Below, in pieces: positions 3,853 through 4,703 of a stretch of 7,457 nucleotides of DNA (within the stretch, counting starts at the first letter, position 1; each line of letters starts with the position of its first letter). The stretch lies in IMG/VR virus record IMGVR_UViG_2690316345_000012, positions 1 to 7,457 of that record, one strand, 5' to 3'. Below the pieces are notes generated by a model, which was given only the letters and a program-made list of their open reading frames with translations, ran no database searches and was not told the DNA's origin. The position numbers and the translations under genes are program-made. This DNA is from a virus. Its lineage: Duplodnaviria > Heunggongvirae > Uroviricota > Caudoviricetes.

Positions 3853-3863
3853 AAGCGAAAAAA

Positions 3864-3895
3864 TCCCGCAGTGCTCACGGACAGGAACTGCGGGA
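3864..3895 (-). terminator. Candidate intrinsic terminator, minus-strand sense (8-bp GC-rich stem, 16-nt loop, then T-run)
   Basis: Perfect inverted repeat TCCCGCAG (3864-3871) / CTGCGGGA (3888-3895). On the + strand it is preceded by A6 (3858-3863), so on the minus strand the hairpin is followed by TTTTTTCGCTTTT. The loop is long for a canonical terminator. Confidence 0.35.
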
Positions 3896-4013
3896 GCGTT
3901 ACGAAGATTGAGTGTAAGGAATTATTCTTATGTCACGACAAAAACATTAACTCAGAGAGGGAGGATGTGCCGTTCTTTTCAGGGAGAAAGGATTTATCGT
4001 CCTGAGGAATAAA

Positions 4014-4035
4014 GGTAAGGGGCCCGCCCCTTACC
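4014..4035 (-). terminator. Candidate terminator hairpin just downstream of the sodC stop (possibly bidirectional, between convergent I and sodC)
   Basis: Inverted repeat GGTAAGGGG (4014-4022) / CCCCTTACC (4027-4035) with a 4-nt loop, starting 8 nt past the sodC stop (4043-4045). On the minus strand it is followed by TTTATTCC, which is T-rich but not a clean U-tract. Confidence 0.45.
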
Positions 4036-4042
4036 TGACTGA

Positions 4043-4570
4043 TTATTGAATGATGCCGCAGGCCATTCTCGCACCACCACCGCCCAGGGGCTCCGGATGG
4101 TCATGATGGTTATCACCGCCAGCATGAAGCATGAGAGAACGCCCTTTAATCTCTTTTAATGAGTTCAGTCTCGGGGCCAGGACCGGGTAGTTCGCTTTTC
4201 CGTCATGCGTCACGAACAGCGCAGGGAGGTCGCCCAGGTGTCCATCCGGAGACCAGGGGCCAAGATGTTTGCCGGTGTTTTTCGGGTCAAAGTGACCGCC
4301 AGCCGATAATGCTGCGACCGGTTTTCCGTCTTTCAGTGCCGGGGCGCAATTTCCTTTTTCGTGCACATGAAAACCATGAATGCCTTCAGACAGAGAGTGA
4401 AGGGCTGGTGTGAACAGCAGACCGTAGGGGGTCTCCTGAATGGTTATTTTTCCAATGCTGACTTCTTTTCCGTCAGCACTGACAAGGTTCATTGGGACTT
4501 CCTGTTCTGCTGCGTATCCGCATGATGCTGCTGTCAGCATGGCAATGGCAGCAATGATTTTACATTTCAT
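4043..4570 (-). CDS. sodC: Periplasmic copper/zinc superoxide dismutase precursor (175 aa), prophage-borne sodC family
   Basis: Minus-strand ORF with ATG at 4568-4570 and TAA at 4043-4045. The N-terminus [24 protein letters not shown] looks like a Sec signal peptide. Cu,Zn-SOD hallmarks are present: [11 protein letters not shown] (Cu-ligand His pair and disulfide Cys), [43 protein letters not shown] (catalytic Arg and second Cys). GAGGG sits 7 nt upstream of the ATG. The larger 344-aa ORF in the track (4043..5077) is an upstream over-extension running antisense into J. Confidence 0.92.
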
Positions 4571-4703
4571 AAAACCCTCATTAATTCCGTTAACAGACTG
4601 AGCTTGCTGGTTACAGGGTAACAAACAGCGTTCTGATGATATCGCGCAATAGCTGTGCAATATCCTATCACTGCGATTAATAATACCAATTGAGAGGAAC
4701 ATT
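4571..4703. promoter_or_regulatory. Divergent intergenic region: sodC 5-prime UTR, Shine-Dalgarno and presumed promoter on the minus strand; J ribosome-binding site on the + strand
   Basis: 133 bp AT-rich spacer between the divergent sodC start (4570, minus) and J start (4704, plus). Minus-strand GAGGG lies 7 nt before the sodC ATG. A TTGCAC hexamer (complement of 4655-4660) is a possible -35, but no clean -10 lies at 17 bp spacing. Plus-strand GAGAGGA (4692-4698) lies 5 nt before the J ATG. Promoter hexamers could not be assigned confidently by eye. Confidence 0.4.

Follow-up and report, generated by a model that had tools for sequence, protein, structure and literature searches.

The window analysed here, the whole 7,457-nucleotide stretch of the Caudoviricetes record IMGVR_UViG_2690316345_000012, represents the tail-tip part of a lambdoid prophage, in which the lambda-type genes H, M, L, K, I and J were assigned with Pfam. 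Between the stop codon of I (3850-3852) and the ATG of J (4704-4706) lies an intergenic interval of 851 bp (3853-4703). We propose that this interval very probably consists of the known sodC-F1 moron cassette, set antisense between I and J, in place of about 125 bp of a ~240-bp spacer that bears a small RNA (sRNA) gene, a promoter-less remnant of which is left. A preliminary description of the window had noted a complete Cu,Zn superoxide dismutase (SOD) gene antisense to the lambdoid tail operon at this junction and had supposed it to be known cargo and not a new system; both statements are borne out below, the former by Pfam and PDB matches with exact coordinates and the latter by the prior description of sodC-F1. 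The only new detail here concerns the site, where, judging from sequence comparison, the cassette appears to have landed in an antisense sRNA gene of the EcOnc22 family and to have cut off its promoter.

The sodC-F1 gene and its signals

The sodC open reading frame (ORF) is complete, running on the minus strand from an ATG at 4570-4568 to a TAA at 4045-4043; a mechanical list of ORFs prolongs it upstream to a GTG at 5077, and we take the ATG preceded by GAGGG as the real start. Its product matches the Pfam profile Sod_Cu (PF00080) over positions 3-133 of 133 at 111.9 bits, where the cut-off is 28.9 (E 3.9e-32), and it also matches solved bacterial Cu,Zn SODs in the PDB with E-values of 1e-56 to 1e-63, the best being 8.8e-63, a similarity far beyond chance. 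In an alignment of the window protein with those of Fels-1 and Gifsy-2 and with three chromosomal SodCs, the copper ligands H68, H70, H93 and H149, the zinc ligands H93, H102, H111 and D114, and also C75, the first cysteine of the disulfide, do not vary, and the active-site arginine R168 and C171 are kept in all five of the aligned proteins that reach the C-terminus, the roles of these residues being those established for Cu,Zn SODs. The signal peptide combines an AASC lipobox (Cys17) with a signal peptidase I site after residue 20, followed by AEQ, and the N-terminus is exactly as published for the prophage SodC of O157:H7.

The interval is identical over 851/851 bp to that of prophage Sp10 of the Sakai strain (NC_002695.2:1963484-1964334), where sodC is ECs_1989, and is likewise identical in many O157:H7, O111:H8 and O145 genomes and in some poultry isolates. 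The two prophage copies of O157:H7 were named sodC-F1 and sodC-F2 by D'Orazio et al. (2008; PMC2569942) and differ by T versus C at nucleotide 335 (Leu versus Pro). The window gene has T335, its codon 112 being CTG (Leu112), and is therefore the F1 allele, which answers the question of allele that the preliminary description had left open. For the identical allele superoxide dismutase activity has been demonstrated; SodC-F was found to be dimeric and more stable than the chromosomal SodC, and its signal peptide to yield a mixture of soluble periplasmic and lipid-anchored protein (PMC2569942). The same work reports expression of the prophage sodC genes in logarithmic, stationary and anaerobic cultures, expression of their tagged chromosomal copies in uninduced cultures, independence of RpoS, and a higher sensitivity of sodC deletion mutants to hydrogen peroxide. 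The sodC of the interval is thus an already-known gene, documented in enterohaemorrhagic Escherichia coli as an accessory antioxidant and a putative virulence factor, and finding it again adds no new biology from the gene itself.

The preliminary description had further called the gene independently signalled. A ribosome-binding site (RBS) and a terminator are indeed present, the hairpin of the latter (-17.4 kcal/mol, z = -3.0) beginning 7 nt past the sodC stop codon; a consensus sigma-70 promoter, in contrast, is not detectable in the sequence, and the promoter has been shown experimentally on identical sequence, with a lacZ fusion driven by the 299 bp upstream of the sodC ATG (PMC2569942). 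The most plausible candidate from a relaxed scan is the weak TTGGTA-16-TGaTAGGAT (4689-4662). The putative -35 element of this candidate (4684-4689, minus strand) directly adjoins the RBS of J (4692-4698, plus strand), so that two divergent signals are packed into ~15 bp at the right edge of the cassette. A PhoP-box-like motif, sought by eye upstream of sodC by analogy with Salmonella sodCI, returned a poor half-site match only. A 15-codon ORF on the plus strand (3966-4013) was dismissed as a chance occurrence, its spacing from Shine-Dalgarno sequence to ATG being too short and the ORF being unconserved outside the cassette.

In a lysogen the late tail operon is off and, as the literature shows for the identical allele, sodC is transcribed from its own RpoS-independent promoter, SodC being exported to the periplasm, partly as a lipoprotein, to dismutate exogenous superoxide. 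Transcription would end at 4013-4036, and any read-through would meet a second terminator, that of the sRNA remnant (3864-3895). During lytic growth, Q-antiterminated late transcription would presumably cross the cassette head-on into J.

The cassette stands in a conserved spacer

The preliminary description took the insert to be about 850 bp long and lambda to be the empty-site reference. The length of the interval and the shortness of the lambda spacer (60 bp, 15445-15504) both stand, but the left 106 bp of the interval are ancestral spacer, the cassette spans only ~3959-4690, and the relevant empty site is the ~240-bp spacer bearing the sRNA gene. Window positions 3853-3958 (106 bp) are common to sodC-less relatives, being 98% identical in many Shiga toxin (Stx) 1a- and Stx2c-converting phages and 92-98% identical to the first 106 bp of the spacer in the nearest sodC-less relatives. 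In alignment the Stx1a and Stx2c phages diverge from the window past 3958 and up to the RBS of J, many of them matching only both ends of the query. The left breakpoint lies at 3958/3959, blast matches of sodC-less phages stopping at query position 106, and comparison of spacers puts the right breakpoint at ~4690, just upstream of the J RBS, which is contributed by, or adjoins, the right end of the cassette. The cassette proper is therefore ~732 bp long, with 50.7% G+C. The definition of these boundaries is a modest gain.

In five further sodC-less prophages the I-J spacers are 235-250 bp long and alignable end to end with one another; the usual state in this phage group is a conserved non-coding spacer of ~240 bp and not the 60 bp of lambda. 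The cassette stands in place of ~125 bp that hold the sRNA promoter and a plus-strand terminator. The sodC-less spacers have this plus-strand hairpin and T-run just before J (L002:3330-3365, with equivalents in L089-L093), and in E. coli it displays a compensatory change from T-A to C-G between variants; it resembles a terminator or attenuator placed within the late operon. In the window the cassette has taken its position. As the cassette is nearly clonal and the sRNA family is diverse, we infer that the sRNA-bearing spacer came first and that sodC is a later and recent arrival.

In the current annotation of Sakai Sp10 (L088) the tag ECs_1988 is missing between ECs_1987 and ECs_1989. This suggests that a small ORF was formerly called in the 190-bp gap between I and sodC and later withdrawn; the gap consists of the sRNA remnant and the terminator.

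A remnant of an EcOnc22-family antisense sRNA gene

EcOnc22, EcOnc23 and EcOnc24 were described as Hfq peaks in CRAC data (cross-linking with cDNA analysis) in prophages Sp15, Sp14 and Sp11 of Sakai (Tree et al. 2014, PMC4104026, Table S2). For the Sp15 copy only, that study showed an EcOnc22 RNA of ~85 nt on northern blots that was destabilised without Hfq; it names only EcOnc23 and EcOnc24 as homologues of EcOnc22 and lists no Hfq peak at the I-sodC spacer of Sp10 (PMC4104026). A review gives the targets of all three as unknown (PMC7873438). We found that in NC_002695.2 the three peaks lie inside I-J spacers, antisense to the tail genes and at a constant relative position. The published coordinates belong to an older genome version and fall ~137-138 nt below those of the current Sakai record at 1.94-2.23 Mb, as calibrated with Rfam AgvB1 (1,941,920-1,941,981, against a published peak at 1,941,783-1,941,835) and with two identical, oppositely oriented copies of HnrS in Sp10 and Sp12, the offsets of which sum to 275. 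Moved by +137/138 nt, the peak of EcOnc22 lies over the terminator and the I-proximal body of a minus-strand RNA; taken at face value, the published coordinates would set the peak on the J-proximal hairpin, a placement that we reject on this calibration. The EcOnc22/23/24 family thereby acquires a precise genomic address (antisense, I-proximal) that is unstated in the table of the source paper, together with a set of variants. The I-J spacers of Sp15, Sp14 and Sp11 (L094:3192-3431, L095:1123-1362 and L096:1173-1412) are each 240 bp long and mutually 100% identical.

On the minus strand of the sodC-less spacers a -10 box, TATAAT or AATAAT, is preceded in most variants by TTCACA or TTGCAA 15-16 nt upstream, and is followed by ~95 nt that end in a hairpin, TCCCGCAG...CTGCGGGA, with a U-run abutting the stop codon of I. 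Measured between the -10 box and the U-run, the RNA is predicted to be ~89-96 nt long, which agrees with its size on northern blots. A covariance model built solely from Sakai EcOnc22 and the two most divergent other sodC-less members matched window positions 3856-3957 on the minus strand over its full length (positions 1-97 of 97, 54.8 bits, E 1.4e-8) and, in each sodC-carrying locus tested, picked up this element downstream of sodC, with no match in lambda, Gifsy-2 or Fels-1. The window sequence of the sRNA body is 98% identical to that of sodC-less Stx phages, 74-98% to other sodC-less variants and 62% to EcOnc22 of Sakai. All 8 family sequences retain the terminator stem, and the remnant is essentially invariant across sodC-carrying loci.

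What the window lacks is the family promoter with its -10 and -35 elements, where it has instead the 3' end of the sodC cassette. Aligned with the family, the window sequence agrees from TCTCTG onward, and has CATCCTCCC at the position where all sodC-less members have a -10 box; across the promoter columns its identity to the family is 13-33%, compared with 62-98% in the body. The left breakpoint falls 1 nt downstream of the -10 hexamer, and the break has therefore left the sRNA body and its terminator without a promoter, as a remnant lying immediately after the sodC terminator.

Other known sRNAs were considered for this region. An Rfam scan of the window and of a sodC-less junction returned nothing above threshold. 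A sub-threshold hit to STnc400 (window 4003-4079, minus strand; E 0.56, 23 bits where the gathering score is 80) is a chance likeness in which the sodC terminator hairpin aligns with the terminator of that family. HnrS (EcOnc10-12) was rejected as the identity of the 106-bp segment, since in Sp10 it lies ~17 kb from sodC, between the endopeptidase gene and ECs_1967, and hence not at the I-J junction; the shifted EcOnc11/HnrS peak (L097:5937-6025, Sakai Sp10 ~1,946,936-1,947,024, minus strand) has a clean terminator of its own, CTGCTGTG...CACGGCAG followed by T7. PasA, PasC and PasD were rejected as lying near Q and the lysis genes, and AgvB and AsxR as lying at the PR'/lysis region. For PasB, described as embedded among structural genes, we found no evidence tying it to the I-J site, no sequence comparison having been made.

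Comparison with related sites and distribution of the cassette

The closest counterpart of the window gene is sodC-F1 of O157:H7 in Sakai Sp10, with the same sequence, position, orientation and AASC-lipobox signal peptide; the prophage backbone around the cassette is a different one. As described precedents the preliminary description had named both the O157:H7 copies and Gifsy-2 sodCI. The former apply fully, with 100% identity to Sp10. Gifsy-2 sodCI, which publications quoted in PMC2569942 treat as an established virulence factor, is likewise a prophage Cu,Zn SOD gene antisense in a tail cluster, with 59% amino-acid identity to the window protein, but it occupies another junction, between M/lom-like genes and L, and the I-J spacer of Gifsy-2 is empty (71 bp). 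The positional analogue of the window gene is Fels-1 sodCIII, not Gifsy-2 sodCI. We equate STM0924 with sodCIII because the published knockout primer matches the Fels-1 spacer; this gene shares with the window sodC the I-J junction, the antisense orientation and the enzyme family (60% amino-acid identity). At the DNA level the window and Fels-1 are alike (70-80%) only within the coding sequences of I, sodC and J, while their promoter and terminator regions are unrelated, which suggests that the two genes are either very old relatives or independent captures at one site. Furthermore, the gap between I and sodC in Fels-1 is 53 bp and holds no EcOnc22-family remnant, and Fels-1 keeps a plus-strand terminator (hairpin and T-run) before J that the window lacks.

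Compared with EcOnc22/23/24 of Sp15, Sp14 and Sp11, window positions 3856-3957 hold the same I-proximal antisense place, the same terminator stem and the conserved blocks, and differ from EcOnc22 in the body, at only 62% identity, in the loss of the -10 and -35 elements and in the want of a reported Hfq peak at the Sp10 copy. Lambda has morons such as lom and bor (the concept is that of Juhala et al. 2000, cited in PMC4104026). Like these, the window sodC is an additional gene of distinct composition that has its own terminator, stands between conserved late genes and is reported to be expressed from the prophage. Lambda lom, however, is not antisense to the operon as sodC is, and sodC took the place of regulatory cargo already present instead of entering a bare gap. 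The I-J junction emerges as a site that enterobacterial lambdoid phages use repeatedly for cargo, with sodC-F there in E. coli, sodCIII in Fels-1 and, in many Stx phages, an sRNA gene; one cargo can displace another at this site.

I and J are neighbours in lambda, in sodC-less Stx phages and in other E. coli prophages, and a SOD gene is no routine occupant of the site: sodC is present in 2/149 phage records that match the I/J flanks, and any relative of the window SodC is encoded in 9/50,697 phage records. The full I-sodC-J junction was found in 547 of 5426 complete E. coli genomes. In all 549 E. coli records with the cassette it lies between I and J, the same 549 being recovered with or without the I/J flanks in the query. 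The cassette is nearly clonal, 540 of 650 records being at least 99% identical. The compositional check proposed in the preliminary description sets sodC apart from its surroundings, with a G+C content at third codon positions of 0.506 compared with 0.646-0.694 in the tail genes, a synonymous codon usage that differs strongly from theirs (chi2 162, 41 degrees of freedom), and a cassette G+C of 0.507 against 0.56-0.60 for the neighbours. Outside E. coli, SodC-F has its closest relatives in chromosomal genes of Serratia, Pseudomonas sp. and Leminorella, at 62-69% identity, and the species-wide search from which they come, with one genome per species, identified no donor. The sodC-F1 cassette is a known lysogenic-conversion moron.

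Alternative explanations

Set beside the spacers of lambda and Gifsy-2, the full interval looks extra, and it could be read as one foreign insert of 851 bp into a short lambda-like I-J spacer. The alignments contradict this: the spacers of the nearest relatives measure 235-250 bp, their first 106 bp agree with the window at the 92-98% given above, and only ~3959-4690 is specific to sodC-carrying prophages, so that we consider a single insertion of the whole interval highly improbable. We hold it equally improbable that SodC serves the lytic cycle, for instance by protecting virion assembly or the infected cell, instead of the lysogen. The location within the late structural operon and the use of the same junction in Fels-1 would fit such a role, but sodC runs against late transcription, with a terminator of its own and a promoter shown by the published fusion; it is active in uninduced cultures (PMC2569942) and encodes a periplasmic or membrane-anchored enzyme of host type. 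That many of the host prophages are degraded (EC4115, 2014C-3061) might mark sodC as a decaying or non-functional passenger of a defective prophage. Against this, the ORF is intact, all catalytic positions are kept, the gene is identical in hundreds of genomes, and the identical allele is expressed, active and of aid in peroxide resistance (PMC2569942); sodC is almost certainly no such passenger.

A further possibility is that the sRNA remnant is still functional, as an Hfq-binding sRNA derived from the 3' untranslated region (UTR) through read-through of the sodC terminator, which would place SodC and the sRNA under one promoter. The poor U-tract of the sodC terminator, UUUAUUCCU, contrasts with the good stem and U6 of the remnant, and the body is full length against the family model and essentially invariant in sodC-carrying loci; that invariance may, however, just reflect recent clonal spread of the cassette, and no Hfq peak is listed at the I-sodC spacer of Sp10 (PMC4104026). 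We therefore regard a functional remnant as unlikely. With a little less confidence still, we posit that the sRNA body may be made as a 3'UTR-derived sRNA of the sodC mRNA after the cassette both decapitated the sRNA gene and removed the terminator before J, the sRNA then coming under an oxidative-defence promoter. In that case riboregulation, and possibly basal read-through into J and lom, would distinguish prophages with sodC from those without it, beyond their SOD content.

Several observations weigh against our proposal of a sodC-F1 cassette inserted into an sRNA-bearing spacer, or against parts of it. A strict sigma-70 scan of both strands of 3600-4900 found no promoter, and a relaxed scan upstream of sodC yielded weak candidates only, with 8/12 matches; support for the promoter accordingly comes from the published lacZ fusion and not from the sequence. 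The RpoS independence is given as 'data not shown' in its source (PMC2569942). As the window is at most ~92% identical to any complete E. coli genome, the published experiments concern an identical cassette in a different prophage backbone. For the sRNA, the peak offset comes from a calibration at 1.94-2.23 Mb that we carried over to 2.68-2.90 Mb, a step that we justify by the constant relative position of the peaks in the spacer. The family stem displays no compensatory base changes among the 8 sequences, and the structure is thus backed by conservation only. A repeat search at the cassette breakpoints, where the preliminary description had suggested looking for short direct repeats, found no flanking direct repeats, target-site duplications or other insertion scars that would point to how the cassette was acquired. 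Finally, the direction of the event, gain of sodC as opposed to loss of sodC with gain of a promoter, is drawn from diversity.

Layout of the window and its prophage backbone

The coordinates of the tail genes and of the features of the interval are collected in Table 1. In near-identical loci I is annotated as a tail assembly protein, and its RefSeq version is shorter, with a start near 3271. The Pfam domains of J are FNIII-A_GpJ, Ig_J, Ig_J_second and Phage-tail_3, each with an E-value below 1e-38.

Table 1. Genes and signals of the window, with strand and the evidence for each
Feature	Coordinates	Strand	Evidence
H (tape-measure, 3' part)	open at left edge, ends 1508		Pfam
M	1505-1834		Pfam
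L	1834-2532		Pfam
K	2537-3274		JAB and NlpC/P60 domains, Pfam
I (tail assembly gene, upstream neighbour)	3172..3852	+	Pfam Lambda_tail_I, E 1.5e-16
EcOnc22/23/24-family sRNA body and terminator, remnant	3856..3957	-	covariance model, family alignment
Intrinsic terminator of the sRNA remnant, stem 3864-3872 / 3887-3895 (TCCCGCAGT / ACTGCGGGA), then U6 (3858-3863)	3858..3895	-	inverted repeat, terminator scan, folding
Distal non-coding end of the sodC cassette	3959..4012	-	similarity to sodC-less relatives lost here
sodC intrinsic terminator, 11-bp G+C-rich perfect palindrome, then weak U-tract UUUAUUCCU	4013..4036	-	terminator scan, inverted repeat, folding
sodC-F1, periplasmic, partly lipidated Cu,Zn SOD, 175 aa	4043..4570	-	Pfam PF00080, PDB homologues
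sodC leader and promoter region, A+T-rich (GC 0.40)	4571..4703	-	composition
sodC Shine-Dalgarno sequence GAGGG	4575..4579	-	read from the sequence; 4 nt before the ATG
J RBS GAGAGGA	4692..4698	+	sequence; compared with J leaders of sodC-less spacers
J (tail tip / host specificity, downstream neighbour)	4704..7457, runs off window	+	Pfam

Taken as a whole, the window finds its best match among complete E. coli genomes at ~92%. The region ~300-2550, comprising the end of H, M and L, shares ~75% identity with O157 prophages and 98.7% with those of SE11, STEC719 and others, while from K onward (K, I, sodC, J) the sequence is 95-100% O157-like. By this comparison the window is a lambdoid mosaic of the ordinary kind, recombined near the L/K boundary and carrying a standard sodC-F1 cassette. 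The prophages that host the cassette are often defective, with sodC intact in those of EC4115 (L001) and 2014C-3061 (L005). The EC4115 prophage carries IS1203 and ISEc8 insertions, a frameshifted terminase and truncated capsid genes, as well as, beside tRNA-Ser/hyaA, a pseudogene of tccP2; an IS3 element divides J in 2014C-3061.

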